The notes under the pieces were generated by a model. The model made no database searches, was not told where the DNA came from, and was given only the letters and a program-made list of their open reading frames with translations. From Takakia lepidozioides (taxonomy: Eukaryota > Plantae > Bryophyta): a stretch of DNA of 64,000 nucleotides. The position numbers and the translations under genes were made by a program. Numbering within the stretch: the first letter of the stretch is position 1; each line of letters opens with the position of its first letter. Location: the NCBI GenBank assembly GCA_030704615.1, contig CM060734.1, positions 46,066,001 through 46,130,000 of the forward strand. Reading direction: 5' to 3'. Positions 759 to 47,615 of the stretch are shown piece after piece.

Positions 759-3700
759 TCATTTCATTCACAGGAGGCTCGAAGCCCTCAGATGATGCAT
801 CTTCCAAGAAGGGGGGTAGGACTTCCTCCCGTACAATATGAGGGTATTTTGGATCAACTGGTTCATGTACTATCTGCTTGTGAAGGTAAACAAGGATAAG
901 ATTAATAGTAATTGAGAAAATGGTGTCAAGGGGAAATGATGTAATTGTGGAATAAAATCATCAGACATATGGTTGCCCCATAAGTGACATGCTTCTAGAA
1001 CTCAATACTTCAGCTGCTTGCAAACCCCCTAAGCTGGAACAAACTCAATAAATGGAACCCAAGAAAGACACAGTTCAAGCAAAAACCTGAGGCATTTCTG
1101 ATACCCTCCGTATTGATGCTGTCCGCCACCCAACCATGTCTATGAAGCACAGATGTCAAGGTTCCACCAAGTTCATTAACAAAACGGCAAAACATCACAA
1201 CCCTCGCTTGGATGCTGTTGAACAAATCTCCATTAACTCATAGGCTCTGTGGGTAACAACAACTCTGGCTGTAGATATTGCATTACGCTCGTCACAAACA
1301 TGAAGTGACCTTAACTGGCAGAGCAAAAGAGTGAACGGAGCGGATACGGTCGTACACAACATTTGCATATGTAGAACGATGACTGAAGGCACGCAAAGCT
1401 GATCTACAGGTCGGGAAAAACCCACTCCCATCACCATCCTTGCAATCCTAAACCACCAAAAATACAACTGGGACAGACATATCATGAGAAGCATAGGCAA
1501 TTTGCAACTTGTAGCTTCTCTGAACTGAATGAGGAGGACGATATATTGTTCAATATATACTTCTATCCTGTTCATGAACCATGCCAGATTTAACAAAAAC
1601 CCTCAGAAGACAAGTTGGGATGAAGAAATTGACAATCTCCGCTCTCTCTTTCTCTTCCACTCTATCTATATATCGATAGATCTCTAAGCCAGATTATCCA
1701 GGGAAGGAAAAAAGAAGGGAAACCCACTTATGTCTTTTTCCTGGATGTCAAAAAGGCTTATGACACAGTGTGGAGGGATGGCCTATGGTTCCGCCTCTGG
1801 TCTTGTGGGATCAAGGGAAAGATGTGGAGAGTTGTCCACAACTTGTATGCTCACACCAAAAGCTGTGTCACTGTTAACGGACAGAAGTCCAACTTCTTTG
1901 ACATAGACCAAGGTGTAGCTCAAGGATGTACTCTCTCCCCTCTGCTCTTCAATGTTTTCATCAATCAACTCCTCGAGGATGTGGAAAGTGAGGGATTTGG
2001 GTTAAGGGTGGGTGATACCACCATACCAGCCCTTCTGTTTGCGGATGACTTCGCAGGCATAGGGGAGACTCCAACCAATCTCCAGGAGTTAAAATTGCGC
2101 GAAGAGATACTTTGATCTTTGGGGGCTAGAGGCTAATGTCAGCAAATGTGCAGTGGTAGCATTCAACGACAGAGGAGAGGGAGGAAGTGATCTTAAGTGG
2201 CAGTGGGGTAGCCAAGAGATCCCGGTCCTCCCTTCCTACACTTACCTGGGCGTTGAGTTCTCCTCCAACTGTAATTGGGATGCAATTGTTCGAACTGGCA
2301 AGGGCAAAGCTCTGGGGCTCACTAAATTTTTCCACTGCAGAGGGGTCAACTCTGAGGTTAAGAAAACCATGCTTTGTCGCGTTATTAGACCTGCCTTGGA
2401 GTACGGATCTGCTATATGGGTTGATAACTCCAACCAGGCTAAGTCTCTAGAATCCATTCAAGTGGGGGTGCTTAAGGAGTGTATGTCAGCATGCTCCAAA
2501 ACAGCCAATGTGGCTGTTCGGGGTGAGTTTGGCATTCCGTCCTTAAGCTCCCGACGAGATGAATTCAAGGTCAGATGGTGGGGTCAGCTGCAACATATGC
2601 CCAACACCAGATATCCTAAATTAATCGACTCTATACCTTGGAAACAGGACCGCCCTGTCAAACAGGCTAAGTCCTGGCAGAAGAGAGTAGAAGAGATCCT
2701 CAAGGACCTGGGGACCTGGATACGCAAGTCTTGACCCTGCTGGATAAATCTGACTTAGAGGCTGTAGTGTCCTCAGCCATGTCTGTTGCCATGAGATTGT
2801 CTGATGAAAATGAAGTTAGGCAGAAAACTTCCCTGAACTTGTTTCCAGTCTGTGACATGGGGGAGGACATCTTGGATGACCTCAAGGGTCTACCCACTCT
2901 CGGCACTAGACTGAAATTTAAACTCAGGGCAGGAAGCCTACCTTTGAACAGCAAACAGAAGCAGAGAGGAAAGGGAGAGTGCAATTGCCCGTTGTGTGGG
3001 CAATCTGAAGACATTATTCATTTTCTGATACACTGTCCGGGGTTCTCTCACCAAAGAGACGCTCTCTTCAAATCTATTAAGGGAATTGTGCCTGTACCCC
3101 TGTTTACCAACTTTGAAAGTCTCGAGGCTGAGCCAAAAGCCCAGGCCCTCCTGAGGCCTAGTTTTTGGGCAAATCACACACAGCAGATTGATGCTTGTGT
3201 GAAGGGATTTCTAGAGGATATCTGGAAAACCCGGATTAATTCTTTATATGGAGGTAAGTCTTACTACCAACGTCAGCCCCTGACAGAGGCAGGTTCTGTC
3301 CCTTTTGTTCCCGCTCAAACTGGGCGTGGGGTCAACGGCCACAAGGCTACGGCAAACAACGTCTTATGAGTACAATCTATATATCGATCCAAGGGTTGGT
3401 GCATATCACCCCCTACCATTGAAAGTACTCAGCCTTCAGCAACAGGAGTGCCCTCCACCAACTTGCCCATCCCCCCCACCCTACCACCCTGCGCCCTTGC
3501 CCGCCTTCTCACTTCAATACAACTGAGAGCACCAAATCTTCCCATAAGACTATGGAGTCACAGTCCTATGAGAGGAAATCTTTGTCAACACTCTTTCAAT
3601 ATACAGGTGAAAATGACAGATGAGCAAGATGAACTGACATGAACTTTCCTTCGTCACAATCAGTGACCATGCGTCGAAGCAGAGGCAGGCGAGTGCTGTG

Positions 3701-8158: not shown

Positions 8159-11100
8159 ATGGGACACTTCATCTACCAACTTACTGCATTTATTCTCACA
8201 GTTTCTATTGGCTTCTACTATTGTTGGCAAGTTACACTGGTCAATCTATCCATTGTTCCTCTCCTTATCGGATCGAGCGCTATCTATGGCCGAATCGTTA
8301 TGAATATGAGCAAGAAAACATCTACAGCCTATGCTGATGCTGGGGGCATTGCTGAGCAGGTATGATTGAATAGTTACAAGTTAGCTGATAGCTGATATAA
8401 TTCTAGAAATCTCTTCCACATCTTGAGGTCACTAACTTCGCTGGAACTAGTCTACCTAGACTACATGACACATATTTTCATTTTGTTGGATTTCAAGGCC
8501 TCAAAACAATTGGTATCGATTAGAAGCTGATTATACTTTGAGATAGATATAGCTGATCTTTGCAGATTGACCAGTCCCATCCTATTTTTTGAACATTGAG
8601 ATAAAAACTACCAATATTATAAAATTATCGTGGGATTGACAGACCTTATCCCAAATACGCACTGTGTATTCATATGTCGGGGAGATGGAGGCTGCAACCA
8701 GTTTCTCAACTGCTCTTTCCAGTACCTTTCAAATTGAGAAAAAGGCTAGACTAGAAAAAGGCTAGACTGGCAAAAGGGTTGGGCTTGGGTATCAACTTGG
8801 GTGTGACAAACTGCTCTTGGGGTTTGCTATACTGGTTTGGGGGGCGTATGATTAGAGGTGGTCACAGTGGCACCGGCAACATTGTAGTTAGTCTCTTCAT
8901 TGTCACCTATGGTGCCTGGTAAGTAACATGTGACCAATTATATCCTGCTTCCAATTTGTGTAATTAAATGCAGTGTGGTATTAAGTGATATCTTAACTTG
9001 AAAGATGGCAGGTCTTGAAAAACAAATGCATGAGATCAAGTGCATAATTCCTTGAAACTTCAAATATGTTCTTCCCAATCCTCAATGCAGACCAAAGACG
9101 GACTCATGTGAGAGCATAATAACTTTTCAGGAATTTTCATGTGTCAAAGGGAGCGTGTGCGCATGTATTTGCAACTCGCACTTCTTGAGTATAGAAGTTA
9201 GATAACTAGACTAATTTGCTATGTTGCATCATGTATAGGCAACTGGTACTCGCAGCACCAAACTTGCAGGCATTTGGGATCGCCAGACTTGCATGTTGGA
9301 AAGTCTTTAAGATCATTAAGCGCAAACCGACCATTATCTCATAGCAAAATGCAATTACATTGAAGGCGGTTGATGGAAGGATTCAGTTTCGAAATGTGCA
9401 CTTTGCATACCCTGCTCGTCTGGATGCACCTATCTTCGAAGGCTTGTCCTTGGAGGTTTCTACAGGCAAATCCCTTGCACTTGTTGGAAGCAGTGGATCT
9501 AGAAAGAGCACTGTGGTGTCATTGATTGAATGCTTCTATGATCCCGTCAAAGGTGTATATGATGTGAAGTTCCATTTATTTAGGTAGATAATGTTTGTCT
9601 TGAGGTAAACACTTGGCTATATAAGACTATATGGATTCGTTCAATAACACCTCCACCTTCACGTCAATCTATCTAGGTGAATCTCGAGTTGTGTTTTAAG
9701 TCTTCTTCCCGACTTAGTTGTACCCATTGGACTTAACATTGTGGGTTACAATCTATGTGCAGGAGAGGTATTCGTAGATGGATATAACATCAAAAGATTG
9801 GACTTGAAGTGGCTACGTAGTCAGATCGGCTTTGTAGGACAGGAACCTTCGTTGTTTGCTACCTGCTTCAGAGAGAACATTGTGTATGGAAAAGCTAATG
9901 CAAGCCTTGAAGAAGCTGAGATTGCTGCAAAAGCTGCCAATGCACACGATTTCATTATGCAGCTACCCGACAAGTATGACACCTAGGTACATATTACTTG
10001 GCCTGGCAATCTAAATCTTCCACCTAGAGTCGACTGATTTGTCATTTTTTTAAAGTTTTGAGAACAAAAAATCTGTTCCATGTTTGAAAGAGGGGTTTAA
10101 TCATGCATTGAGATCATCCAGTGACAAAATCCGTGACTTATAGATACTTGATTTAATGAGTAAGTCCACGAAATGACCTAAACAATTGCAGGTTAGAGAG
10201 GGGAACTCAACTCTCAAGAGGGCAAAAGCAACGTGTGGCCATTGCAAGGGCTTTGCTGAGAAATCCAACTATCCTTCTTCTAGATGAAGCCACTAGTGCC
10301 CTCGATGCCCAGTCGGAGCAGATCGTTGAAGAGGCACTCAACGGATTGCTTGGCGGCACTACCATTATTGTTGCCTACCGCCTCTCCACTATTCGCCATG
10401 CAAATACTATAGCGGTGGTGCACAAAGGCCAGATCGTGGAATCGGGGACACATGTATAGCTCATGGCACAAGAAGCAGGTAGTAGCATGTACATTAGTCT
10501 ACTTCGGCCCCTGACCATATTGCATCCATCACCCAAGATTCTAGGTACATTGACTAGCCAAACTAGTCTGATTTATTATAAGTCTAGTTCAAATGCTTTA
10601 ATACTGTTTTCAACATAAACATTTTCACTTTTCGATAGGCTATGAATCTATCTACATCCTCATCTCCATTTCAAGACATGCAGGACATCAATATGTTTCT
10701 TCTTTATCATTCTATTGTACATCATGGTATCTAGCCTCCTTCTATGTGAAGATGGTGCACATGAAAGTCTAACATATAACTTGGCCATTTTCGCTATTTT
10801 GGGCTCTACATGCTTGACGATTGTTCCTGATATGCATGCAGAGGACTGAATGAGCAGAGATTTACCTCCCAACCCAAGTATCGATCTAGTTCTGTCGCAA
10901 GTTCCCCTGTCCTAGGCTCACGTCACTCACCTTCACCATACATATATGGTATGAGTTCCTCATCAGTCATGGGCACAACATGGTCACCGGCTCATATGCT
11001 GGGAGCTCCTGCATATACATACAACATCTTCCCCTCGGAAAAAATCTATCATGGTACTTCAAGCCCGACAATTTTCGGAGAAGATTGTAAGCCAAATAGT

Positions 11101-11883
11101 ACGGACATGGTTGTGGCTCATCAAATCTCCACAAGCAAACTTATGTACACAGAGCTGCAGACACCATTGACAACAACTTCGCCACTTCTCCGCATATTGA
11201 AATTAAGTTTGTCCAATTGGCCACAAGGTTTGTTTGGTGTCATGGGGGCAATATTGACTGGCAGTGCCAAACCACTGTACTCATACTTTATGATAACAAT
11301 TGCAGTTGCATATGCCAAACCGGCAACTATTAACAAGATAGTCAACCATTTCTTGCTGGGTTTCGTGGGTATTGGGATTGAAGTCATATAAGTATAGTGC
11401 AACACTATTTTTCTGGGAATCTTTGGCCAGAAAGTTACCAAGAGTGTGCGTGAGAAAATTTTCTCAGGTAAGACTTTAGGAGTTCATGGCACATTTGAGT
11501 ACATTTCATATAAAGCTCTATGTAGATATCGAATTTCCTGTACAATGTTTCCTATAGGACAATGTAAGGAGTCAACAGACTGGTATTAAAGGGATTCATA
11601 TTGGTCCACATTCATATTGATAATGGTGTGGACACATCCATGACCAGTGGTTACGCGCAATGAGGTGGGGTGGCTTGATAAGGACGAGAACACCACTGTT
11701 GCCTCACGTCTGGCATCCGATGCGGCACTCATCAAAACAGTCCTTAGCGACCGTCTTGCATCAATAATTGAAGAGATGTCATCTTTAATTGTCGCACTTG
11801 CTCTCAATTTGATTACAACATGGCAAGTCGCACTAGTTACTTGTGCCATACTGCCTCTTTATCTTCTTGGAGGTTTTGGACAG
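8159..11883 (+). pseudogene. ABCB (P-glycoprotein/MDR) transporter pseudogene fragment: part of TMD1, NBD1, linker and start of TMD2
   Basis: Exons ~8159-8359, ~8643-8918, ~9239-9552, ~9762-9986, ~10192-10478, ~10850-11467 and ~11648-11883 with ABCB motifs ([52 protein letters not shown]). Walker A is mutated (GSSGSRKST), the signature is mutated (LSRGQKQR), and there are in-frame stops at 9984, 10457 and 11389. Confidence 0.9.
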
Positions 11884-12008
11884 GTACATATTCTTCTTGA
11901 ACAAGATTAATGTATATATGGACCTTAGACCTGAGGGAACTCCGCTGGATCTTCTTTGCATTCTGATCAAGTTCAAATTCTATACCTCCTCAGGTTCACC
12001 TATAACTG

Positions 12009-12524
12009 TGTCGTGCGCATACATATCGCTACACAACTACATCGCTGTCCAAAACCACACAACACATGTGCACACCACACACTAGTATACCACTAGTCTA
12101 CCACTAGTCCAGCCACTAGTCCAACCACTAGGCTACAACTAGTCAGTCACTAGGCTGCCACTACGCTGCCCACTATGGCAGTCACTAGTCCACACAATGA
12201 TAAAGAAGAAGAATACAAGCACAAGCTCATGCGAGCTCACAAAGCTGAAGCATAAACTCATGCATATATAACCTCATCACTCAAATACAAGTCAAGCCAA
12301 GTGCACCCCACGCCATGGGGAATCCACACTACGGCGCCATAGCTAGGCGCGGTGAGGCTCAACTCGAGAAAGATGAGCCTCCCGCGCTTGCCGTGAAGAT
12401 AACCACTCCAGGGCCTAAATCTGCCTTGACCCCTGGATTGACACTTGGGCCAATCCCAAATGTCAATATGTAAAAGCTAGCTATTTCCTAGCTAGTTTCA
12501 CACTAGTGGTAAAATAACTTGACA
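12009..12524 (-). repeat. 3' terminal repeat block A(12009-12197)-B(12198-12358)-C(12359-12524)
   Basis: A+B recurs at 12527-12876 (offset 518). B+C recurs at 24032-24358 (offset 11834). Confidence 0.95.
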
Positions 12525-12526
12525 GC

Positions 12527-12914
12527 TGTCGTGCGCATACATATCGCTACACAACTACATCGCTGTCCAAAACCACACAACACATGTGCACACCACACAC
12601 TAGTATACCACTAGTCTACCACTAGTCCAGCCACTAGTCCAACCACTAGGCTACAACTAGTCAGTCACTAGGCTGCCACTACGCTGCCCACTATGGCAGT
12701 CACTAGTCCACACAATGATAAAGAAGAAGAATACAAGCACAAGCTCATGCGAGCTCACAAAGCTGAAGCATAAACTCATGCATATATAACCTCATCACTC
12801 AAATACAAGTCAAGCCAAGTGCACCCCACGCCATGGGGAATCCACACTACGGCGCCATAGCTAGGCGCGGTGAGGCAGTCACTAGTCCACTATGGCAGTC
12901 ACTAGTCCACACAA
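12527..12914 (-). repeat. Inner repeat block A+B plus a short duplicated A-end fragment, next to a PPT-like tract
   Basis: 12527-12876 appears identical to 12009-12358. 12874-12914 repeats GGCAGTCACTAGTCCAC from the end of A. The minus strand reads AGGGGGGCGA at 12924-12915, directly before TTGTGTGG. Confidence 0.9.
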
Positions 12915-13173
12915 TCGCCCCCCTAGCTGGTGCTTAGGTCCCTCTAAGTCCAGGTAGCCACAAGATGTGATAGTGACCATAGCCTCACTAAGTCCTCCAC
13001 CACTATCCCTACTACACTCAAACTCGATAGATCAAGAGGCCGGGTGCAAGAGTTGCCCCATCGTTAGTCGCCGTCTTGCAACCTGTGAACTTGAGCTTGG
13101 GATCTCATGTATTGACTCCTATGAGCTTGGCCTCCCATGTCTTGTTAGCTGCCTCCAGTCATGTCCACTGCCA

Positions 13174-14440
13174 CTATCCCAAGCAGTGTGGACACAACCA
13201 ATCTCCGTCAGGCACCTTCTCAAGAGGTGGTGTCAAGCATCCCATATGCCAACCCCTTGAGCACCGATCACACACCAGCATGGTGGCTGCCCCTTTGGCA
13301 GACCCACAGAGCATGCACCTCAAACCTGCAGGTACCACTGCCAAGTTTGGGTCAACTCTGCCATCGACATTGGGAAGGTGACATGGCGCACAATTACGCA
13401 CATGGTCTTTCCAAGTCATGCCATCCCGACCCTCTAAGATCAGGACCCCTGAGGGCAACACCTCTCGAACCCTCAGAATAACACGCCCTGCAGTAACATC
13501 CAGAGTCGTAGGAGCAGTCTGCTGCAAATAAACATAGTCACCAGGGCTAAACCTCCGAACCCCAGGACGATATCCTCCACCACGTATAGTGGCATACCTC
13601 AACGTATCACGGTGCTGTGCAATGGCAAGGTTCTCAAAAGCCATGGGCATAACTTTCTTGAACAACTCTGCACGCTGATCACATGCACGTACCCACACGT
13701 CCGGATCGTCAAGGTTAAGGACTTGAGCAGTGTCCCTACGAATGGCTGCAGGCAAATCCGGCTCTCGGCCAAAGAGAAGGAAATATGGTGAGAAGGAGGC
13801 AAGTGATGCTTGTTTGCTGAACCTGTAGCCCATGGCTAACCAAGGAACCTGAAGATCCCAATCTCCTAGGTGTCCCTTCTGCAAGCCATACTTGCGCAAA
13901 CCCCTCTTCACCGTCTGAACAACTCTCTCTGCTAAGCCATCGGCCTCAGGATGATCCCGAGAAGTGGTGCGGTGGTCTATCAAGGCTTTATCACACAAAG
14001 CCTGAAACTCCCCCAAGAACTCTCTCCCTTGGTCCGTGAGTACCTCAGCTGGAGCATCAAATCGGCTAAGCACACGATCCAAGAATGCATACGCAGCCCC
14101 CTCACTAGCCTTGTCAGGGCAATGGAACCAACTCAATCCACTTGGAGAAGTGCTCCACCATCACCAACACATATCTGTGGTGGCGCATAGTCAGTGGCAA
14201 CGGTCCTGCGAAGTCAAGACTCCACCTATAGCCCAATCCCATGATAGGTAAAGGATGCAACTGTGGTGTAGGGGCGTTGAATGAAGCACGCACCCTGTCA
14301 CACACCATGCACCTAGCCACAAACTGTTGCACCTCTGTATGCATACCACGCCACCAATACTGCCCCTGCAGTAAACTGTGAGTGCGTCGCACTCCAAAAT
14401 GCCCCAACTCCTCATGGGCATGCCGCACTAACCGTGCACG
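13174..14440 (-). CDS. Integrase (H2C2 zinc-binding domain + rve DDE core) with C-terminal PHD finger
   Basis: HEELGH..CMVC, WSLDFAGP, LTDQGREF and HPEADGLAER motifs. Terminal C4HC3 motif CMLC..VCDRC..WHMGC..WLCPHC at ~13180-13325. 1-bp homopolymer frameshift at ~14117. Confidence 0.93.
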
Positions 14441-16149
14441 CTGTGTGGGGTGAGGCACAATCCTCACCCGACCATCCTCCCACACTCGAAGTAGGTGTAT
14501 CCCCTCCCACTTGAACCTCTTGGCTCGTTGCAGGATCCGATCCCTCTCCCTGGCAGTCACAATGGCTGCCGTGTCTCCCGTGCGGAGGTAGTCCAACACA
14601 GCCGAATCCTCATGTATATCTCTGGCACCACCTAGCTCATCACTAGCCTCAGGGTCCTCAGACACTCCGTCTACAGTCATCCCTGTTGTAGGTCCAATCT
14701 GACCTCCCGATGCCAAGATACACAAAAATGCAGATGCGTGCCATCCCGGCACCATTTCCTCGTCCGTCTCACCATGCCACCGAGCTCCAGTGTCATCCTG
14801 CTGGCTCATGCATGGATTGCGACTCAATCCATCCGCATCCCGATTGACCAAACCCGGTCGATGCACAACCTGAAAGTCATACTCCTGGAGTATAAGTGCC
14901 CACCGTGCAAGCTTCCCTGTAAGCTTGTCTGACTCCATCAACCACTTGAGTGGCTGGTGATCCGTGACAAGGGTGAAAAGATTGCCGTATAGATAGCACC
15001 TGAAGTGTGCCACGGCCCACACTGCAGCTAAGCACTCTCCCTCATATGAGCTGTACTTAGCCTCTGCAGTGTTGTTTGAGCGGCTAGCGTAAGCCACTAC
15101 GAACTCTCTTCCCTCATCATCCACCTGTGTGAGCACCGCTCCAAGCCCCAGCATGCTCCAATCCGTATGCAGCTGAAAGGGACGCCCCCTGATAGGTCGT
15201 CTCAAGATAGGCGCCGAGGTCAACCTCGCCTTGAGCTCTTGAAAAGCTCGTTCCTGCTCATCTTCCCACTGCCACTCCTGGTCCACCTTGGTCAGCTTGG
15301 TTAGAGCCTTTGCAATGGTACTAAATCCCTTGACAAACCGTCTATAATAGTTTGCCAACCCCATGAAAGCTCGAACTCGGCTCACATCCGTGGGGCGTGG
15401 AATTTGTGCAATGGCCTCTACCTTAGTCTGCTGTACCCCCAATCCTCCAGGATATATCATGTGACCCAGATACTCAATCTGGTTGTGGAAAAACTTGCAC
15501 TTCCCCGGATGCAACTTCAATCCGTGCGCTCTCAAGCGCTCCAATACCACCTGAAGGTATCTCTCATGCTCCTCCATCGTAACACTAAAGATGATGATGT
15601 CATCTATGTAGCACCGAGCAAAGTCCACCCCTGCTAGAATCCTATCCATGACTCTCTGAAACTCTGCAGGAGCATTCTTAAGCCCAAATGGTAAGAACCG
15701 CCACTGATATAGGCAATCCTTGCCGTGCTCATTGATCCCCCAGAATGCCGTCTTCTGCTTGTCCGCCTCCTTGATGGCAACTGGTGATATCCGGATCGTA
15801 AATCCAAAGTGCTAAAGGCCTTAGCATGCCCGATGGCATCAAAGATCTCCTCTGGTGTTGGCATGGCATACTTATCGGACTTGGTCTGACGATTTACAGG
15901 CCGGTAATCACCGCACATACGTCTCTCCGTCCAATTGCCATAGACATCCTTCTTGGCTGGCATCACTGTGGCTGAAGCATACTCTCCCCCAGAGAACTCC
16001 ACCAAACCTGCCTCCCAGAGATCTTGAGTCCTCATCTGAATCAAAGACCTCTCCATGTCACTGTATCTATAGGGTCTCCGAAAGATTGGCGTGTCAGTGG
16101 CCAACTCAATACGGATCTCTTGACCCTTCAGTGCTCCCAAGTCCTTCAA
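14441..16149 (-). CDS. Gypsy-type reverse transcriptase and RNase H
   Basis: PIFRRPYR, RMCGDYRPVN, LDLRSGYHQ, PFGLKNAP and YIDD (~15600) for RT; LHTDWS..GLGAVL, YSSYEGECLA and TDHQPL for RNase H. 1-bp frameshift at ~15776. Confidence 0.95.
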
Positions 16150-16599
16150 ACTAAAGGCAAAGCAATTCCTGTAAAGCCCTCAGGAACCGCCGTATACGTC
16201 GTCTCTCTCCTCCGGTGACAATGGGTCCAATGTCAGGCTCCTAATTGTCCTCCGTAACTACAACTTAAGTCCAGTGGGCTTAGAGGTAGAGGACGCGTCC
16301 CGTGGTTGCTATGCTGCAACCTCTTGAGCAGTACTCCCTGCCTGCTCAGTCAATGACAAGACCTCATCCTGCCCCATCATCTCATCATTGAGGACCTCCT
16401 CAACCCGAGAAGAATCCCAACCTCATCCATCACAGCCGCCTTGGCTGCCAACTCCCCTCTGAACCTCGAGCACCTCCCACGTGTGCCATGGATGCATGCA
16501 CCCCGTGGTCCTCATATGCTCGCCCCCACTCACTGCCTGTACCGTCTCGGTAGGCAGAGAGACCATTGAGGGAAGTGTATTCCGCACTCTGCGTTGCTC

Positions 16600-17560
16600 A
16601 GCTAGAGCCAAGCTGATAATCCAGGTCAAGCAATTGAGATCCATTGCTTGCCCCAACACTTGACGACGTGATGCCTCAGAAAGAGACGACACGCCGTGGT
16701 GGTACCAGTGGTAAAACCCATTGCCCGCTCACGCTCGTCAGCATTAGGCTCCACTAACTGCTTGCTGAGCATCCCACAGGAGGCCAGGTCCACTATCCCG
16801 GAAAGCATGCGATCCTGGGAAGCTGAGCAGTGTAGGTAATGCTGCTCGTGGTTGACCCACCTTGTTGACCACTGCCAACGGCGAACGGTCATCGTGTCTC
16901 ACACGTTGAGACTTCCTCCCTGTGTCCAGAATGTTATCCACTGTGAGATGTGCTGGCCGCTGCACCCCATCAAATGCACGCTTGAGCAGTGCGGGGGGCA
17001 TCATGTTAGTCCACCATAGCCGTGGACGATGAGCCCGTGACCCCACTGTAGCTGCATCTAGCAACACTGCTGACCCAAGCCACGACCGGACTTGATGCAC
17101 ACTGGCCATCACCCTGGCCCGAGAATCGCCCATCAGTGGCACATTCTCCAAGATGTATGCTGGAGATACAGCTTGATGAAGCTGCAAGTGGCGCAAAACC
17201 CGCACCATCTCCCAAAACAGACCCGACCTCGAGTCTCGCAATCCATTGCCATGCCCGGCTGATGAATGCCCTTGGCAGGGCCAACCTGCCACTACCAGAT
17301 CAATGGAGCCAACCCGCTCCAAATCCTGCGCCCCCAGCAACGAAATGTCTGCTGGCAAGGCCTGCTGATATCCACGAATTGCAGACACCGACAACAACTC
17401 AGGGTACCGCTGCACCAACTGAGCAACATGGCGAAGTGAAACGCGTCGTGCAGTCTCATCCCTCTCCACATACAGGTAACGCCGAACTCGTACACCTGCC
17501 TGTAACACAGCAGCCAATCCGGTGCTGATCCCGCCAAACAAGTCCAGAAGACAAATGCCT
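16600..17560 (-). CDS. Dnmt3-like C5 cytosine DNA methyltransferase domain inside the retroelement polyprotein
   Basis: Motif I LDLFGGISTG, II YVERD, IV DLVVAGWPCQG, VI YILENV, VIII LDAATVGSRAHRPRLWWTN; after short frameshifts, IX ERERAMGF and X RRQVLGQAMD. Same ORF (16744-18615) as the protease. Confidence 0.92.
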
Positions 17561-17959
17561 TCATCCGGAGACTGCCACACAATAGGTGTGGTGTCCAATG
17601 GAGACAATTGAGGTGGTCCTGGTGCAATCCCCACACTCTCCTCCTCTCCTGACGGTACAAAAGCCTCCACCCAGGCTTGTTGCACCCGTCGATCAGCATC
17701 CCGCTGCAAATCCTTGCTCGTGCCCCACAATGGAGTCTGAGCAACCATGGTAGGCAACTCCGCCATACCATACATGTCATCCTGCTCTCCCGGAGGTGGT
17801 ACATCCTCTGAATGAGCATTGCCCTCAAGCAACTCTCTAGGCCAACTCACTGCCGCTGTGAATGCTGCTAGTGTCGGCATCTTGCCTCGCTGGGCAACCG
17901 CAACTCCTCCTATGAACGTCACAGGGAGCTGCACACGCCGGCCCTCCCCTGACTGCCAT

Positions 17960-18300
17960 GCAGGCCTATAGGAAGCTGACTCCTCCCAAAAATCCAGGGT
18001 GAAGCCCATGGGGTACAACACTGCCCCACCAACCAGGACATCGTATGAGACTGCGTCTGTCACAATGGCCTTGGCTCGCATCACTGAGCCATCTGTAGGG
18101 TGATCCGGCCGTAGTCTGATAGCCAACTCACGCCGTGTCATGCCCCGAGCCTGCTCCGATCCTCCCAGAGACGTCTGTATCTGGAAAGGACAAGGCTCCA
18201 TATCCGCCTCCGTGAGGCCCAAGCCTGCAATAGCAGCTCTGCCCAGCATCAATGGCTGAGCTCCCGAGTCCAACAAGACCCGCAGTGGCCGGTACCTCTT
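17960..18300 (-). CDS. Retroviral-type aspartic protease domain
   Basis: RVLLDSGAQPLMLG catalytic motif and downstream YDVLVG motif. Confidence 0.85.
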
Positions 18301-18566
18301 GCCTGCCGGTCCACTCAAACAGAAAATGCCATCCTGGTTGTCTAACATGACAACTCCAGGTGTCACCATGGCGCGCTCAATGGCTGGCCTAGCTGGCAGC
18401 TCCATCAACCTGGCAGCTGCAGCTTGCCATGGCGCCGCCGTGGCAGTCTTGACCCTCAAATCCGAGGATCCCTCCGGCACTACACCTCCTACTATCTCCG
18501 CAGAAGATGAAGTAACCTCCCCACTCTCACAGAGTGTAGCTGCCAGCCTGAACACCTCAGCTGGTC

Positions 18567-20472
18567 TTACCCCGGCGTCGCAATCATGGTAGCCGAGAAC
18601 AATGGAGCCTGGCACACAGATGTGGCCGCTCCTAGCAGCACACTAGCTGCCGTAGCCTTGGCAACACTAGGTAGTGGTGCTACCCGTGTAGCTCTCCCCA
18701 ATGGCATAGTAACCTCCGCCTCGGTAACAGTCGGGCGAGAACTAGGTGCCATGGATGGCGTCGACACTGTCTCCGCCAATGTGAATGACTGAGGAAGCCT
18801 AGCCTGACGGCTTGCCTCCCCACGCTGTGGATCCAACTCCACCTCTGCACCTCGTGGCTCAGGAACTCGTGCTGCTCCTCGAGTCACGGCTGCAGCAGAC
18901 TCCACCTGCACTAGTGGTAGTGCTGCTCCACACATGAATCCCATGCCTCCCATATCTCCTCCCTCAGGAGCAGGAGGTGGACCATCCGGCCTTAGAGCCG
19001 GTACCACCTGAGCTGTAGCCATGGCAGCGAGCCTCTGCTCTAGCTGCTGAAGCCGGTTGGCCATGCCTTGGTCAACACCCTGACCTCCGCGTCCTTGGCC
19101 ACGTTGAGCTTGCCCTTGGCCTCGTGGCTGGCCACCTCGTCCCCTCTGGGCTGCTCCACCTGCCCCCGGCCACCATTGTTCCCTTGGAACTGGCCTGGGC
19201 GCAACTCAGGATGCAAACCATAACACTGAGCCTCTCCATGCCCGTGTTTGCCACAATGCCCACACTGTAACTGTGCAGGCTGTGCATGTGCCGGCCCTTT
19301 GCCTCCCTCTGGACAATCCTTCTTGACATGGGGTCCTCCACATGTCCAGCACACCACATCCGCCCGTTGTTGGCCAGCAAATGAAGGGAGAGACCCCTGC
19401 ATCTGAGGTCCTCTCTGCCCTTCCCTGAGCTTCACCTGAGCCCCCTTGTTGCCTTGAGCACGTTGAGGTAGTGGTTGGCTAGGAGCACCACTACCCCGTG
19501 GTGTCTCCTTAGCAAATCCCACCATGACCACTCGTTCCTCCACCATGTTGAGCTCTATCCGCTCTGCCAGCAAAAACACATTTGCTAAGGTGGGTTGGGC
19601 CGCTTGTAGGAGAGTTGCATCCCGCACCCTTCTCCTCAGCTCCTTGTCCAATATCCCATACCAGAATTGGACTGCCTGAGCTTCCGTAACCCCGGGGTTA
19701 CATTTATCAAGCGCCTCATGCGAGTGAAAGCCTCCCTCAAGCTCTCGGTCGGCTTCCGTTGGAACTCTTGCAAGCTCCGCAACTTCTCTGTCCTCACCCC
19801 TTGGTAGTTCCCTCTCAACTCTTCGAAGAACTCCACAACAGGGTTGAAGGCAGGCACGGGTGCTAGTGCTGGTGCGGTAGTGGTTTGGGTGGACGTCGTA
19901 GCTACTGTACCACCAGTCCCACTGCTGCTTGCTGAAGCTGCCGGTGCAGCGGCAGGTGTAGCCACTGCCCTCGTGGCTCTAGTGCCCCTAGTGATGGAGA
20001 CATAGTCGGGTGACCAGTACATCCTCCACTCCTCGATCTCAACCTCATGCCCCCGCCTGAACTCATGGTAATCATCCATAGGCGGCCCCTCAAGGTGCTG
20101 AAACAGCCCTTTCCATGCCATGAACGGCGTAAATAGTTGTGGATTGCACATTTGCTGCAAATCACACCAACTATCAAACTCTTGGATAAAATCATCCAAC
20201 TCAATGGTGCCCACCGCCCCAGAGTACCTTCGTGGCCCCTTGGTAGCTCCATACATCTCCTCCATTGTGTCCCACAATAATGGCAAAGAAACAACTTGCA
20301 CCGCCGGTATGAGCCCTCCTGATTCACAATCCGAATCAGAACCTTCCGTGGAAGACACAGGAGGTGAAGGTGGCCTAAACCGCACACCTCGTCTCGTGTA
20401 CCCACTAGTATCGCTAGTGCTCGAACCGGCACTGTCCCCAGCAACTAGTGGCACCTCCGTGTTGACACTCAA
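18567..20472 (-). CDS. Gag (capsid-like region + two CCHC zinc knuckles), frameshifted
   Basis: LQEFQRKPTESLREAFTRMRRL resembles retrotransposon gag. Knuckles CWTCGGPHVKKDC and CGHCGKHGHGEAQC. Split over ORFs 19636-20472, 19040-19651 and 18567-19064. Confidence 0.85.
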
Positions 20473-20772
20473 CCGGTCATGAACATGTCCCTAACCCCCT
20501 CTCTACAAGGTAACCGGGTAGAGAAACCTGTTGCGGCTTATGGTTTGGAATACTAAGTTCCTAACATAGCCTATACCTGAACTTGCATGACCATGGGAAT
20601 ATCATGAAGATACTCCTCAAACCGCCCTCCACGAGCTTCAAAATTCGGCCTTCCAGACCACATGCCAGTCCTTAGGCAGTCCACCAGTGCCTCCACGAGT
20701 CAGCACAGGCCGTCCACAGGTCAACACGGGCCACCACAGACCAGCACAGGCCCACACAGCTCACTGGTCAGA

Positions 20773-22497
20773 GCCGTCACAGTCCCACAGGCCACTTGGC
20801 ACAGCCTGTCACAGCCCCTCACAGCCTGTCACAGCCTCAAAGGCCTCAGGCACGGCCTGTCACAGCCCGTCACAGCCCGTCACAGCCCCAAAGGCCATGG
20901 GCACGGCCTGTCACAGCCCCTCACAGCCCGTCACAGCCTCAAAGGCCTCAGGCACGGCCTGTCACAGCCCCTCACAGCCCGTCACAGCCTCAAAGGCCTC
21001 AGGCACGGCCTGTCACAGCCCCTCACAGCCCGTCACAGCCCAAAGGCCATGGGTACGGCCTGTCACAGCCGTCACAGCCCCACAGGGCACAGGGCACAGC
21101 CTGTCACAGCCCCTCACAGCCCGTCACAGCCCCAAAGGCCTCAGGCACGGCCTGTCACAGCCCCTCACAGCCCGTCACAGCCCCAAAGGCCATGGGCACG
21201 GCCTGTCACAGCCCCTCACAGCCCGTCACAGCCTCAAAGGCCTCAGGCACGGCCTGTCACAGCCCCTCACAGCCCGTCACAGCCCCAAAGGCCATGGGCA
21301 CGGCCTGTCACAGCCCCTCACAGCCCGTCACAGCCCCACAGGGCACAGGGCACAGCCTGTCACAGCCCCTCACAGCCCGTCACAGCCCCAAAGGCCTCAG
21401 GCACGGCCTGTCACAGCCCCTCACAGCCCGTCACAGCCCCAAAGGCCATGGGCACGGCCTGTCACAGCCCCTCACAGCCCGTCATAGCCTCAAAGGCCAT
21501 GGGCACAGCCTGTCACAGCTCGCCACAGCCTGTCACAGCCGTCACAGCCGCACAGGCCTCAGGCACAGCCTGTCACAGCCCGCACAGCCGTCACAGCCCA
21601 AAGGCCACTGGGCACAGCCTGTCACAGCTTGCCACAGCCTGTCACAGCCCGTCACAGCCCCACAGGCCACAGGGCACAGCCTGTCACAGCCCCTCACAGC
21701 CCGTCACAGCCTCAAAGGCCTCAGGCACGGCCTATCACAGCCCCTCACAGCCGTCACAGCCCCAAAGGCCTCGGGCACAGCCTGTCACAGCTCGCCACAG
21801 CCTGTCACAGCCCGTCACAGCCCCACAGGCCTCAGGGCACAGCCTGTCACAGCCCCGCACAGCCCGTCACAGCCCCAAAGGCCACTGGGCACAGCCTGTC
21901 ACAGCCTGACACAGCCCATCACAGCCCCACAGGGCACAGGGCACAGCCTGTCACAGCCCATCACAGCCTGTCACAGCCCGTCACAGCCCCAAAGGCCACA
22001 GGGCACAGCCTGTCACAGCCTGACACAGCCCGTCACAGCCCCACAGGGCACAGGGCACAGCCTGTCACAGCCCATCACAGCCTGTCACAGCTTGCCACAG
22101 CCTGTCACAGCCCGTCACAGCCCCATCACAGCCTCAAAGGCCTCAGGCACGGCCTATCACAGCCCCTCACAGCCCGTCACAGCCCCAAAGGCCTCGGGCA
22201 CAGCCTGTCACAGCCCGTCACAGCCCCACAGGCCTCAGGGCACAGCCTGTCACAGCCCCGCACAGCCCGTCACAGCCCAAAGGCCACTGGGCACAGCCTG
22301 TCACAGCCTGACACAGCCCATCACAGCCCCACAGGGCACAGGGCACAGCCTGTCACAGCCCATCACAGCCTGTCACAGCCCGTCACAGCCCCAAAGGCCA
22401 CAGGGCACAGCCTGTCACAGCTTGACACAGCCCGTCACAGCCCCACAGGGCACAGGGCACAGCCTGTCACAGCTTGCCACAGCCTATCACAGCCCCA
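20773..22497. repeat. Tandem array of (GT)CACAGCC cores in a ~51-bp higher-order unit, inside the retroelement leader
   Basis: Unit AAAGGCCTCAGGCACGGCCTGTCACAGCCCCTCACAGCCCGTCACAGCCTC has period 51 at 20941. Variant units continue for about 1.7 kb. Confidence 0.97.
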
Positions 22498-22959
22498 CAC
22501 ATGGCCGCTCTGGCAGTTTAGCCATTTCTCCAAGGGGTTTAGCCACGCCAAGCTAGGGTTTGTGTCTCTGGGACTCTAGGCTTCTTTCCACCGAGCTATG
22601 GCGGCTGTGAGGAACTCAGCAAGGTATTCTTGTTCTTTCGGCTCCCACACACCACCATAGTAGCCCTAAGCCATGAGGTGGTTGCCACAAACCAAGCCTT
22701 CTTTCTCACTTAGCCTCCCCAAACACGCCACTAAACTCAATGGCAAACAACCAAGCCCTGCTGGTTCCCAGCCCTTGTGAGCACTCATTCAAGCACTCTC
22801 CTTGGCCATAGCATCTGTCTTAGAGCCTATTCCAGCCCCCTACACCTGCTGCTTCAAGAGTTGCGCTCCCTTCAAGCTTGAAGTTGAAACCCCAACTCAC
22901 ATAGGCCCTACAAGTGCTTTTCTTTCACTCCAAGTGGAAACCAGCCCTAGACCTTCCGT

Positions 22960-23360
22960 TCTAGCTCTCTAAGGCTTGAAAACAAGAGCCTCAATGGGCT
23001 GAAGGCATGCTCCACACATGCCCCACTCTCACCATAAGAGAATCAGCTCCTTTGCTTCATTTCTTGCACCCACAAACCTGAAAATACAAGCTTCAGCAGG
23101 CTGAAAGCATGCTCTACATGCCCTACAGGGAAACCAGCCCCTTCCTTCCTTCCTTGCACTCCCACACCTAAAAGTGCAAGCCTTCACCAGGCTGATAGCA
23201 TGCTCCACACATACATTGCCCTCACATAAGGGAAGTCAGCCCTTCCCTCTTCCTTGCTTGCCCTCCAAGCTTGAAGATGGAAGCTTCAATGAGCTGAATA
23301 CATGCTCCACACATGCAACCTCTTCACACAAGAGATATCAGCCCCCTATCTTGGCTCCTT
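22960..23360. repeat. Four degenerate ~100-bp repeats in the retroelement leader
   Basis: Core GCTGA(A/T)(N)2CATGCTC(C/T)ACA recurs at ~22997, ~23100, ~23191 and ~23293. Confidence 0.7.
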
Positions 23361-24015
23361 GGCTCCTTGATGCTCTCTAAGACAAGACTAAGCACTCCAC
23401 AGCCCTTGCCAAGCTCCTGAAACCCTAAGGCTTACATTTCCAGCCACAAGACACTTCTCTTGTGGTGCAAGAGCTCTTCTTCCAAGCTCTGAAACCCTAG
23501 GTGCACATTCCATGGCCTTGCCGCACCTCTTAGCTCCTGTTCCAGCCCTGCTCTTGCCATGACAAGAGCCCTCTCAATACTGAAGCTCGAGATTGAAACC
23601 CAATCTCACCATACTCCACAAAGTGCACTGATTTGCCCCAAGCCAAATCAGCCCTTTCGCTTGGTCTTGCAATCCTTCACACAATGACAGCTCGCATTCC
23701 CAAGTCCACTTCTCAGCTTTGCCACCAAAGCCACTATAACCTGCTCTTGACTGGTCCTCTTCCCAATCGTGCTTGCTCATGCATGTACACAATCTGAAAC
23801 CATCAAGGTGCTCTGGAATTACCTACAGTATGGTGCTTTCATCTCTGAAGCTGAAGATCGAATGCCAAGGTTTACCACCTCGTAACCCACATCGCCTCCG
23901 CTTCTAACAACCAAGAGCTCCACGGTGCTCCTTGCATAACAACTTGGTTTCTCTCATTCTCAAGCAAAAACCACAAGTGCTACAACTAACTCGTATCTAG
24001 CACTCATAGATACGA

Positions 24016-24032
24016 GCTCATCTTTCTCGAGT
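24016..24032 (-). promoter_or_regulatory. Putative self-priming primer-binding site
   Basis: GCTCATCTTTCTCGAGT (24016-24032) is the exact 17-nt reverse complement of 24196-24212 in the terminal repeat. It lies where a tRNA PBS (TGG...) would be expected, and none is present. Confidence 0.65.
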
Positions 24033-24358
24033 GATAAAGAAGAAGAATACAAGCACAAGCTCATGCGAGCTCACAAAGCTGAAGCATAAACTCATGCATA
24101 TATAACCTCATCACTCAAATACAAGTCAAGCCAAGTGCACCCCATGCCATGGGGAATCCACACTACGGCGCCATAGCTAGGCGCGGTGAGGCTCAACTCG
24201 AGAAAGATGAGCCTCCCGCGCTTGCCGTGAAGATAACCACTCCAGGGCCTAAATCTGCCTTGACCCCTGGATTGACACTTGGGCCAATCCCAAATGTCAA
24301 TATGTAAAAGCTAGCTATTTCCTAGCTAGTTTCACACTAGTGGTAAAATAACTTGACA
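24032..24358 (-). repeat. 5' terminal repeat (B+C, 327 bp; TGTCAAG...TTATCA in element orientation)
   Basis: Matches 12198-12524 except for a C/T change at a CpG (CCCACGCC vs CCCATGCC). Confidence 0.95.
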
Positions 24359-24399
24359 ACTGCAATACTATTTCTCGTCGTCCCTTTCTAAGATTAGTT

Positions 24400-25332
24400 A
24401 TGCAATTATCATCACACAAGAACTGGACGGCTATGGAGGTACATGTGTTAGCTGTCGCAAAGCGCCATGAGTGGGAGGCTTGGAAGGCCTCCAATTCGCG
24501 TGGCAACATGATGTGCGACAACGTAAAATGGGAGAGGGTAGTTGAAGTGTTGGAATCGCAGGGTGTGAGCGGGCGGGACGTTGCTGGGTGCACCACCAAG
24601 TGGCAGCATTTGTGCAAGCAGTACAAAGACATCTGGGGGCACCAACTCAATGCCACCGGCAACCGGGACTATTTCACGATGAGTTCCGATGAGCGCGTGG
24701 CGTTGGGACTTCCGAAGTCCTTCGCCAGGGACCTCTTTGAGGACATGAACTTCCTGGCTGAGCGTGCGTGCAACGCTCCCAAAGTGACATCAGCGAGCTT
24801 GAGGGTAACACCAATTGTTGCTCCTTTGCCCCCTGTAGACATAGATACATCGTTGCCTCATATGGAAGAGGAAGTACTACCCTATGCTAATAATGAGGCT
24901 GCACCTGCTCTACCATCATTGGATGGGATGGCCCATGTGCGGGTAGAGCATGATGAGGCGCCGATTCTTGCACGGGGTCGGCCTCCAGTGATGGGCCGGG
25001 AGAGGTATACCAACACCTCTCCCACACCCTTTACCAATTCGACAGGTAAGAAAAAGAAGGGAAGCACAACCAGTGCCGATCTACTCAAGGCCTTCAAGGA
25101 AGGGAATGAAGGTTTGTTCAAAAATATGGAGGAGGATAGGAAGGAGAGAATGGACAGGTTTGCCAAATCTTTTCAACTTCAAGATGACATCTTTAAATTT
25201 GAGGTTGAAAAAGCTAGAGCAACCTTAGCTACAGAGCAGGCAGCTTCAGGTAACCAGCGCACCATGGTGTCGCATTTTGGAAAGCTCGTTGAGCATTTTG
25301 GAAAGCTAGTTGAGAAGAAAGATGACGCCTAG
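24400..25332 (+). CDS. Myb/SANT-like (trihelix) DNA-binding protein, probably the accessory ORF of a PIF/Harbinger transposon
   Basis: Intact 310-aa ORF with NWTAMEVHVL..KWERVVEVL..GRDVAGCTTKWQHLCKQYK, a basic NLS-like KKKK and a C-terminal coiled-coil-like region. Convergent with a Harbinger transposase. Confidence 0.8.
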   Translation: MQLSSHKNWTAMEVHVLAVAKRHEWEAWKASNSRGNMMCDNVKWERVVEVLESQGVSGRDVAGCTTKWQHLCKQYKDIWGHQLNATGNRDYFTMSSDERVALGLPKSFARDLFEDMNFLAERACNAPKVTSASLRVTPIVAPLPPVDIDTSLPHMEEEVLPYANNEAAPALPSLDGMAHVRVEHDEAPILARGRPPVMGRERYTNTSPTPFTNSTGKKKKGSTTSADLLKAFKEGNEGLFKNMEEDRKERMDRFAKSFQLQDDIFKFEVEKARATLATEQAASGNQRTMVSHFGKLVEHFGKLVEKKDDA

Positions 25333-27619: not shown

Positions 27620-28750
27620 ATGTGGTTGCACAATATCGCCCTCAAATCAGCACCAACTGTATGGCCCCTATTGACAACTGGTTCTTGACTGTGGGCAACT
27701 CGATCACGCTCCATGATGGCTGCCATGGCATCCATCTCATTGTAGATGCCCTCAAAGTCAACTTCCTTGAAATCAACCAAAAGATTATATAGGATGCAGC
27801 ATGAGTTCGCTCCTCCAACCCACCTCTTTGAAGGTGCCTTTCATTCAACCAAAGGCAATCTCCGAGAAAATTCTTGCCTTTAACAATTGGTGATTGAAGA
27901 CGGTTTTGGCTCTGGAGAGGACTGGAGCATTGGGAGCTCTTTTGTAACTAGGGATGAGCCAGGGGAGGGCAGGGTAGACTGCATCACCAATAAGGAGTGG
28001 TGGGATCTCGTGTCCATTGTCAAGAATGACATTCTCACCACGCAAAAGAGTGCCCTGTGATGCAGGATAGAAAAGGGGGGAGTTCCGTAACACCCTAGAG
28101 TCGTTCATACTGCCGGGCTCTCCAACATAGATATCCACAAACTTTGCATCTGGATCCACGACCCCTTGTAGAACCATTGAATAGTAACCATTTCTGTTCC
28201 TGTAATCAAATTTGATGTCATTGTTGGGGGCCTTGATTCTGATCTGTGTACAATCAATTGCACCGACAACATTCGGAATCCCTGATCTCTTCTCGTTTTC
28301 AAGCATCGATTTCTTGAGAGTCTCACCTCCTTGCCACTGTAGGTGGTGACCCAGGACAGAGATAATGGCAGGGACCACTTGTCGCAAAAGCTCATACAGA
28401 GTTGAACGACCAATTCCAAAAGCCTCGGTAATTTCTATTGTTGTGGCTGCCCACAGTAGTTTATAAAGCACTGCCCCTACTCTCATCGGTACAGGTAAGC
28501 TCCTCCGGTACCTAGTATCATGCATCTGTATAACCGGTGCAAGGGCATTGCACAACCAATCGAATGTGCCTGCACTCATCTTCATAATCTGCAGCCATCT
28601 CTCGTCATCATATTGCAAAAGAAAGTCCTCAAACCAAGCTCTCGATCTGTGCTTGATCCACATCCCTAAAGACATACCACCTCTCGGCTTGTAGTTCCTA
28701 ATGGTCCAGAACTGGCGCTGCAAAAAACTCCTACATGCAAGGAGTAACAT
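27620..28750 (-). mobile_element. PIF/Harbinger DDE transposase (HARBI1-like), C-terminus disrupted
   Basis: VGAIDCTQIRI, YYSMVLQGVVD, GSMNDSRVL, LLIGDAVYP and FNHQLLKARIFSEIAFG motifs, then a stop at 27845. Confidence 0.9.
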
Positions 28751-29739
28751 ATCTGGATCATCCTCCTTGGCTAGGTCAATATCATGACGAAGCAGAGTCG
28801 GTCATGCCTCTTGTGGGCGTCTCATCCCAAACAACTCTGGAGCCTGATCGAGCATGAACTGTATAAAGACAAGAATCTCTCCCATGGCAATAGCCAATTC
28901 GTTTGTCATATTGAAGTCTGAACTCATGAACCAGCAACACCTCTACTAGGGCAGTATTTAGATTGGCATCTTCTATGACTCCAACTTTGACAATGAACCC
29001 TGTAGATATGAGCATTCCAATGCTTGAGAACACATCTCAAGATGGATATCATACATCACTAACTTAGCTTGATCCACAGTATGGAGCATGAAAATGTAAA
29101 TGAAAATGTAGTCTCATGGAGTATCATTATTGCAGGCTATGCTCAGCATAGGTGTGGTAGGGAGGACCTCCAACTATTTGAACAAATGCAATGGATAAAA
29201 CATAGAGTTTGGACAGATCAGAGTTGTCTGTAAAACAGTCTCTTCTGCAAAGGGCTTGTGTGCAGCAGCTGGTGGGCCCAGAAGGAGCTTGTGCAATATC
29301 ATTGTGTTCCCTCCACTGGACACATAAGCATCATCAGACATTGAAAGACATTTCAAAAGGGATCGACCAGCCAAGCATGCCTGTCAAAACAGGGAGAAAC
29401 CTGCATGGAGCAATTCCAGAAAAAATTCTCACCTTTGCAACTCAGGAAGGCCTTTTGCTGTCTTCTAGCATCAAATCGTTGTGAACTCTACAGGCACCAA
29501 GCACCACAGCTCCCTCTTCCCTGCAGCCTTTCGCACTTGGTGATTGCTTGTCACTGACAAAAAGATAGCACAAGTCTCTCAAACTGACCTTCCATTGGAA
29601 CAGCAGTCTGAACGCGGCAGGGCCTGGGTCGTCAAGCCACTCCCACGGGCTCCGTCCACCATAGCCGCGGGAAGACGGGCGGGCAGCCCGATTTTTTTTT
29701 TTTTTGCGCTCCTGCTAACAAACTGCCGCGCGACGGTTT

Positions 29740-32217: not shown

Positions 32218-34506
<2,289 letters not shown>

Positions 34507-47574: not shown

Positions 47575-47615
<41 letters not shown>

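Follow-up and report, generated by a model that had tools for sequence, protein, structure and literature searches.

A DNMT3-carrying Ty3/Gypsy retrotransposon with split terminal repeats in a probable bryophyte genome

Organization of the element

The stretch of DNA analysed here (64 000 nucleotides of contig CM060734.1, hereafter the window) contains, at 12009–24358, a Ty3/Gypsy retrotransposon carrying a DNMT3-like DNA methyltransferase domain (DNMT). Coordinates are positions in the window, and the features of the element lie on the minus strand. It starts with TGTC at 24358, ends with GACA at 12009 and is flanked on both sides by CAGT, a 4-bp target-site duplication (TSD; 5' copy 24359–24362, 3' copy 12005–12008). 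A 5' leader with a tandem array of 51/52-bp units of 10-bp subunits (20774–22497) is followed by gag (18567–20490; capsid and two CCHC-type knuckles, spread over three frames in this copy and contained in one in relatives), an aspartic protease (PR; 17900–18380, DSG at 18270–18262), the C5-methyltransferase domain (16590–17560, motifs I–X unpermuted), an amber stop, reverse transcriptase and RNase H (RT-RH; 14800–16179, frame break near 15775), integrase with H2C2 finger and DDE core (IN; 13320–14460, frame break near 14117) and a PHD finger at the integrase C-terminus (13183–13317). One open reading frame (ORF; 16744–18642) holds both the protease site DSG and methyltransferase motifs I–VIII, with PCQ at 17280–17272 and ENV at 17148–17140.

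In a Pfam scan of the element ORFs, DNA_methylase (48.7 bits, cut-off 22), PHD (42.9 bits, cut-off 24), RVT_1, RT_RNaseH and Integrase_H2C2 all exceeded their cut-offs; rve, Asp_protease_2 (the protease) and Retrotrans_gag matched below them. The PR-RT-RH-IN order, DDE integrase, TG..CA ends and 4-bp TSD (family range 4–6 bp) are those of Ty3/Gypsy elements. The two full direct long terminal repeats (LTRs) expected at the borders are missing; repeats A and B are instead arranged A..B-A-B, and the primer-binding site (PBS) and polypurine tract (PPT) bound a B-att-A unit. No tyrosine recombinase family was detected among eight element ORFs scanned with Pfam, and the presence of a TSD also sets the element apart from DIRS/PAT/Ngaro. 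A Tcn1-type chromodomain is absent from the integrase, the PHD finger being in its place. A preliminary description of this DNA had seen a recent Gypsy insertion whose methyltransferase lies between protease and RT, in the ORF of the protease; domain order, profile matches and coordinates bear this out, as do, for its age, terminal repeats identical at 350/350 and 329/331 positions.

The PHD finger is nearest to those of CHD4, KDM5B (PHD1), PHF12, KDM5A (PHD1) and ATXR5, several of which read the unmethylated H3 tail. A PHD reader had also been predicted; the finger is present, and it belongs to the integrase, not to the methyltransferase.

The leader array is 1.7 kb long and G-rich; related loci L018, L025, L040 and L044 have leader repeats of other sequence.

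The stop codon between DNMT and RT

In the window, TAG followed by CAACCA (16311–16303) lies in the DNMT frame and closes Gag-PR-DNMT; RT-RH-IN-PHD continues in the same frame. CARYYA is a plant-virus read-through signal. TAG or TAA followed by CAR-YY was found at the same place in 40 of the 44 copies holding both the DNMT end and the RT start (the misses are L033, L042, L054 and L055), compared with a background of 170 out of 15 767 triplets (1.1%) for CAR-YY after TAG/TAA. These copies are relatives of the window element, and several loci represent the same insertion in different samples. CARYYA is matched exactly by five rows, which represent four divergent lineages (window, L014, L040/L041 and L044), and in L040 this amber is the single stop within 2,410 codons spanning gag to PHD. 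The proteins of Marchantia and several unnamed ones terminate 57–180 residues past DNMT (76–77 amino acids in Marchantia P0005/P0006). Because a conserved in-frame stop of read-through type ends Gag-PR-DNMT, the methyltransferase of the bryophyte-type lineage is likely to be made at capsid level, on the abundant Gag-PR product, and read-through would make Pol. The earlier assignment of DNMT to Pol has to be revised, since the stop, which the preliminary description did not mention, splits Gag-PR-DNMT from RT-IN.

Several observations weigh against this reading. The context ends with C or T, not the consensus A, in 35 Sphagnum-type rows; most loci belong to one Sphagnum-type family, which leaves about five lineages as independent support; and Closterium P0033 and P0035/P0194 have no stop and read through as one ORF. 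The stop might also be a true end, in which case pol would need re-initiation or its own message, spliced or separately started. Sphagnum-type copies do have an ATG closely after the stop (QPM), but it is missing in the window, L014, L040, L041 and L044, all of which retain the frame and the CAR-YY context, and we regard a true end as improbable. A literature link between CARYYA and retrotransposons was not found.

The methyltransferase domain

The best sequence match of the domain in the PDB is DNMT3A (E 1.5e-9), with motifs I–VIII collinear over query positions 9–193. DRM-type chains align to positions 7–132 only, i.e. the first half of the domain, and the permuted motif order of plant DRM is not seen. 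Motifs IX–X are reached only after two frame breaks (near 16760 and 16700) that compensate each other. For an intact relative (P0336, 73% identity) the predicted fold (predicted local distance difference test score 92) has DNMT3A as its best structural match (E 4e-19, target template-modelling score 0.83); a search of the ESM Atlas returned generic DNA_methylase clusters only. The proposal of a Dnmt3-like, unpermuted enzyme is supported by these matches.

Of 81 rows in the DNMT alignment, 79 retain the catalytic Cys; Glu is conserved in 75 of 78 and Asn in 78 of 78; the motif VIII arginines are less well kept (55/75 and 66/75), with losses mostly in decayed copies. The ratio of nonsynonymous to synonymous substitution rates (dN/dS) for DNMT is 0.07–0.23 in seven out of 10 lineage pairs, near protease values, and dS is saturated in the other three. 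Some of these rows repeat one and the same insertion, and five are weak matches. Values for 17 Sphagnum-type copies are 0.40–0.92 across the domains (0.65 for DNMT), which is the picture of decaying copies and uninformative on selection. Judged by the lineage pairs and the conserved residues, the domain is under purifying selection, and the concern that its residues might be degenerate or its dN/dS near 1 does not hold.

What the enzyme acts on is a further matter. Most likely, DNMT would be freed by the protease inside the particle and would then methylate complementary DNA (cDNA) or a circular form of it; methylation of cDNA was proposed earlier for DIRS elements (PMC5890265, available text). 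Two results do not favour such an activity. CpG observed/expected is 0.49–0.63 in the coding parts and 0.42–0.43 in the flanks, and no CpG/CHG depletion relative to the flanks, as a footprint of self-methylation, was detected. In addition, the Klebsormidium domain produced no DNA methylation in yeast, a test described as inconclusive in the available text of PMC5890265, where SymbioDIRS domains methylated CG. The Klebsormidium result would suit a catalytically dead, DNA-binding passenger kept for structure, as would the frequent ECQ in place of PCQ in chlorophyte-type relatives, but with Cys, Glu and Asn as well preserved as they are a dead passenger appears very improbable.

Alternatively, the target might be host chromatin: a free enzyme at Gag level would methylate the target site or copies already in the genome, which would damp the family and so protect the host. 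The stop does put DNMT on an abundant product, purifying selection demonstrates use and not substrate, and a benefit to the host is raised in the available text of PMC5890265. On the other side, fusion to Gag would be expected to confine DNMT to particles with cDNA, and the PWWP and ADD targeting parts of host DNMT3 were absent from the element ORFs by Pfam scan. We consider action on host chromatin a serious but rather unlikely alternative.

Repeats, priming signals and ends

Self-alignment of the window resolves the terminal repeats into two blocks. Repeat A (327 bp; A1 at 24032–24358, A2 at 12198–12524) corresponds to the right-hand part of a permuted LTR, with the predicted promoter, start and R-U5, and repeat B (189 bp; B1 at 12527–12715, B2 at 12009–12197) to its left-hand part (U3). 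L021, L039 and L055 have the layout A..B-A-B; the window has in addition, between the PPT and B1, a copy-specific duplication (12716–12915) of the start of B and the R-U5 part of A that is absent from relatives. No A..B-A-B terminal repeats of at least 30 bp were found in chlorophyte-type loci, most loci being too short to tell.

The segment directly after A1 (24016–24032, the predicted PBS) is a perfect 17-nt complement of a segment of A (24196–24212), which would be the RNA 5' end acting as self-primer; the maximum in 246 control windows was 10 nt. In Sphagnum-type copies both sides of this pair have changed and yet pairing is kept (11–15 bp in eight out of 12 copies; the segment was missed by the script in the other four), and some of them have a TATA-like box ∼30 nt upstream. 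The PPT (12916–12928) is kept in distant relatives, and repeat B begins at this tract. Both the split repeats and the self-priming signal noticed at the outset are confirmed by the layout, the length of the complement and its covariation.

The B/A junction is a palindrome, GACA-GC-TGTC (12521–12530, no strand), predicted to be an internal integrase (att) site. GACA-NN-TGTC with its 2-nt spacer is present in eight out of nine copies, including the distant L040 and L044 (L033 deviates), and the ends of the element equal the palindrome halves minus the spacer. A 4-bp TSD accompanies all eight insertions that hold both the TG start and the CA end (window, L021, L025, L026, L029, L037, L039 and L055). 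The A2/B2 joint was available from six distinct insertions: it is precise in two and carries one substitution in two; L021 has a 20-nt filler, and in L029/L030 filler accompanies a remnant of the PBS.

Some rearranged forms were also seen. The duplication 12716–12915 resembles a mis-jump in reverse transcription, its inner boundary lying where minus-strand strong-stop DNA is predicted to end. L013 (7067–7433) and L017 (6344–6710) have an inverted B and PPT region directly before the PBS, and L029/L030 contain an internal inversion too; all may be products of auto-integration. Copies with a single A and a single B and a preserved TSD (L025, L026 and L037) were considered as one-LTR-circle integrations; this was dropped, as L025 and L047 share a 3' flank while one has B and the other B-A-B, for which a deletion or an assembly collapse suffices.

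A model of replication and integration

We consider it probable on balance that the window element is a young member of a high-copy Ty3/Gypsy family and that its host is a land plant outside the seed plants, likely a bryophyte. On the same reading, a DNMT3-like methyltransferase closes the Gag-protease frame and likely methylates the element's own cDNA, and integration likely proceeds via a two-LTR circle opened at an internal site. Read-through of the stop would make Pol, and DNMT would be made and packaged at capsid level. Tf1-like self-priming from the PBS, together with the PPT, would give an ordinary linear cDNA whose LTR is B-att-A. Its ends would be ligated into a two-LTR circle, of which the A2/B2 joint is the predicted junction. 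The integrase would then make one staggered cut at GACA-NN-TGTC, leaving two CA-3' ends with 2-nt overhangs, and would insert A..B-A-B. The weakest steps are those in which packaged DNMT would pre-methylate the cDNA or the circle and the PHD finger would steer the integrase to chromatin with an unmethylated H3 tail.

A circle integrating at the internal site of its left LTR is suggested because the genomic A2/B2 joint fuses exactly the PBS-defined and PPT-defined cDNA ends and may contain filler or PBS remnants. Internal-site integration is further favoured as only its product keeps the 3' R and can replicate again, and one staggered cut after each CA would provide two processed integrase ends. 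HIV-1 integrase, which linearizes two-LTR circles at a palindromic junction, offers a precedent (PMC4372172, available text). It counts against the model that only six A2/B2 joints are available and that L029/L030 is a rearranged copy.

The arrangement A..B-A-B could also arise during copying from RNA if the template were switched additional times, a scheme modelled for split-repeat DIRS/PAT elements; the linear cDNA would then have TG..CA ends, and no circle would be needed. The same layout in tyrosine-recombinase elements (PMC5890265, available text) would be accommodated in this way, as would the four of six A2/B2 joints that are precise or one base off. A primer at the PBS, however, places the right end of the cDNA at the end of A and not of B, the PBS remnant and filler at A2/B2 look like the residue of cDNA end-joining, and the fixed 2-nt spacer fits one staggered cut. 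Template switching is thus judged unlikely, although it retains some weight. The read-through and circle-integration readings, conditional as they are, can be called well supported by sequence.

A broader interpretation is put forward tentatively, as its chances seem somewhat short of even: a green-plant-wide Gypsy lineage may have given up integration of linear ends in favour of obligate cDNA circularization, with a DDE integrase opening a built-in palindrome and a leaky stop loading a capsid-level de novo methyltransferase that marks the long-lived circle.

Family and distribution

Relatives named in the protein searches are from Marchantia polymorpha, M. paleacea, Calypogeia, Riccia, three Sphagnum species, Closterium, Mesostigma and Scenedesmus; no vascular-plant, Physcomitrium, Ceratodon or Klebsormidium name occurs among the protein matches listed. 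There are 199 clusters at 50% identity with E <1e-30. In public run X2, the coding region has a summed depth (which is not copy number) of 0.78–1.27 million, spread evenly over DNMT, RT and integrase; a contig on the left flank has 75. This points to a very large family retaining the domain, and the idea that other copies lack DNMT, as after a one-off capture, fails on its presence throughout the named relatives.

Two layouts were distinguished, PR-DNMT-RT and RT-RH-DNMT-IN-PHD. The PR-DNMT-RT elements form one clade in quick trees of RT-RH (44 rows) and DNMT (53 rows), with SH-like approximate likelihood ratio test (SH-aLRT) values of 100 and 98, respectively; a bryophyte-type subclade (98) includes the window, and Mesostigma and Closterium fall in the wider clade. 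The trees comprise DNMT-bearing elements only and are midpoint-rooted with no outgroup. The second layout (L057–L072, P0187 from Scenedesmus and ∼90 protein rows) is more diverse and apparently chlorophyte, with many ECQ motifs. It seems that the DNMT domain moved within the element between the two layouts.

Several Gag-PR-DNMT frames (P0004–P0019, including Marchantia Mp4g09160, Mp8g17980, Mp6g11220 and Mp2g26090) are annotated as host genes, some with the UniRef label DNA (cytosine-5)-methyltransferase.

State of this copy and genomic surroundings

As assembled, the window copy has ∼11 frame breaks, two of them in the C-terminal part of DNMT, and one more in-frame stop directly before RT. 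The preliminary description did not mention these breaks; taken at face value, they count against the model above. At ten break places, contigs of public runs differ from the window by single-letter indels, and among the 12 matches listed the small, independent runs X6 and X8 often agree on this in every contig. Eight of these ten places, taken from the contig comparison, lie in runs of at least three like bases, compared with 30% of random places. With terminal repeats 99.4–100% identical, many of the breaks are probably long-read errors, and the set of breaks as a whole probably reflects assembly errors in part.

The host was approached through a root-cap gene in the window. Every named protein among its 120 matches listed is from an embryophyte (top identity 62%), in keeping with the land-plant surroundings described initially. 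In a quick tree of the window gene and 54 of these matches (55 proteins), the gene is placed apart from the vascular-plant group (SH-aLRT 91) and stands between rows of mosses and liverworts. This single paralogous gene tentatively suggests a bryophyte host.

The element sits at the 5' end of the frame of a Myb/SANT gene (24352–25332, plus strand), which together with a DDE_Tnp_4 transposase (27845–28801, minus strand) represents a PIF/Harbinger element; the left flank continues the same frame beyond a decayed ABC-transporter-like piece (10831–11920). Two LINE-like repeat families are present in several copies (1633–3378, 47587–48168, 54491–55008 and 61506–62742; 39877–42785 and 57469–61504). 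Between them lie alpha-tubulin (33236–34506), the root-cap gene (35497–36950) and a malectin-like receptor kinase (39363–49495), named by reading translations, the root-cap gene alone having been searched.

Implications and comparison with known systems

DNMT3-carrying Gypsy elements, known before from one alga, now have a range that includes liverworts, Sphagnum and several algae. The elements can be tested in Marchantia, where whole Gag-PR-DNMT genes are annotated as hypothetical proteins or methyltransferases; bryophyte methyltransferase counts may accordingly be inflated. The model offers a concrete, testable mechanism for DIRS-like repeats in an element with an integrase. If true, obligate integration of two-LTR circles bears on the long dispute over circles as integration substrates, and with a de novo methyltransferase present at capsid dose it could be tested directly why transposons retain silencing enzymes.

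Neither DNMT-bearing Gypsy elements of land plants nor a mechanism for split repeats with an integrase turned up in the literature, which is weak evidence as most subscription papers, Repbase and bioRxiv supplements lie outside the coverage. No bryophyte DNMT-Gypsy is mentioned in the available text of PMC6317226, PMC9940879, PMC6673714, PMC11982613, PMC11244446, 10.1101/363937 and 10.1101/2021.02.12.428880. The name 'streptophytes (Gypsy-DNMT3)' is used for this kind of element in bioRxiv 10.64898/2026.05.21.726589, the available part of which does not name land plants. Troyka, which is confined to animals and has CG..CG ends and a 3-bp TSD, is unrelated (PMC12440569, available text).

The suggestion of an undescribed system is not upheld. 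KnitGypsy-Dnmt3 of Klebsormidium nitens (PMC5890265, as available) shares the Gypsy domains, an unpermuted Dnmt3-like domain under purifying selection and the DIRS-like repeat layout. The window element differs in its land-plant host and in its DNMT, which a conserved stop leaves on the side of Gag-PR; in KnitGypsy-Dnmt3 the domain is described in the Pol ORF with RT. In the window DNMT and RT are in the same frame with the stop between, and Closterium-type proteins of the same clade do have them in one ORF. The available text on KnitGypsy-Dnmt3 gives no PHD, self-priming, TSD or integration model, although its figures may show a stop or a PHD. A PHD in the Gypsy polyprotein of green plants is known from Chlamydomonas (Gypsy-7a_cRei, REM1), whose elements have near-complete paired LTRs, with no DNMT mentioned (PMC9940879, available text). 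The kind of element has been known since 2018, and what is added is a solid extension of its range to land plants.

Self-priming is the mechanism of Tf1. The window element is predicted to have it in common with Tf1/Tf2 and with plant Tcn1 chromoviruses, having 17 nt of complementarity between the PBS and the RNA 5' end (start site predicted); it differs in the PHD in place of a chromodomain, the added DNMT and the permuted LTR. Tcn1 elements are likewise predicted to self-prime (PMC6317226, available text). The A..B-A-B layout, a likely circular intermediate and a captured Dnmt3 are shared with split-direct-repeat DIRS/PAT/Ngaro elements and SymbioDIRS-Dnmt3; where these have a tyrosine recombinase, the window element has a DDE integrase, TG..CA ends and a 4-bp duplication. 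For foamy virus, cleavage of two-LTR circles by integrase is reportedly known. The integrase of human immunodeficiency virus 1 (HIV-1) linearizes such circles at the palindromic end-to-end junction (PMC4372172, available text). In HIV-1 and foamy virus this appears as a side route at the ligated junction; in the window element it would be the sole route, at a dedicated LTR-internal site with a 2-nt spacer.

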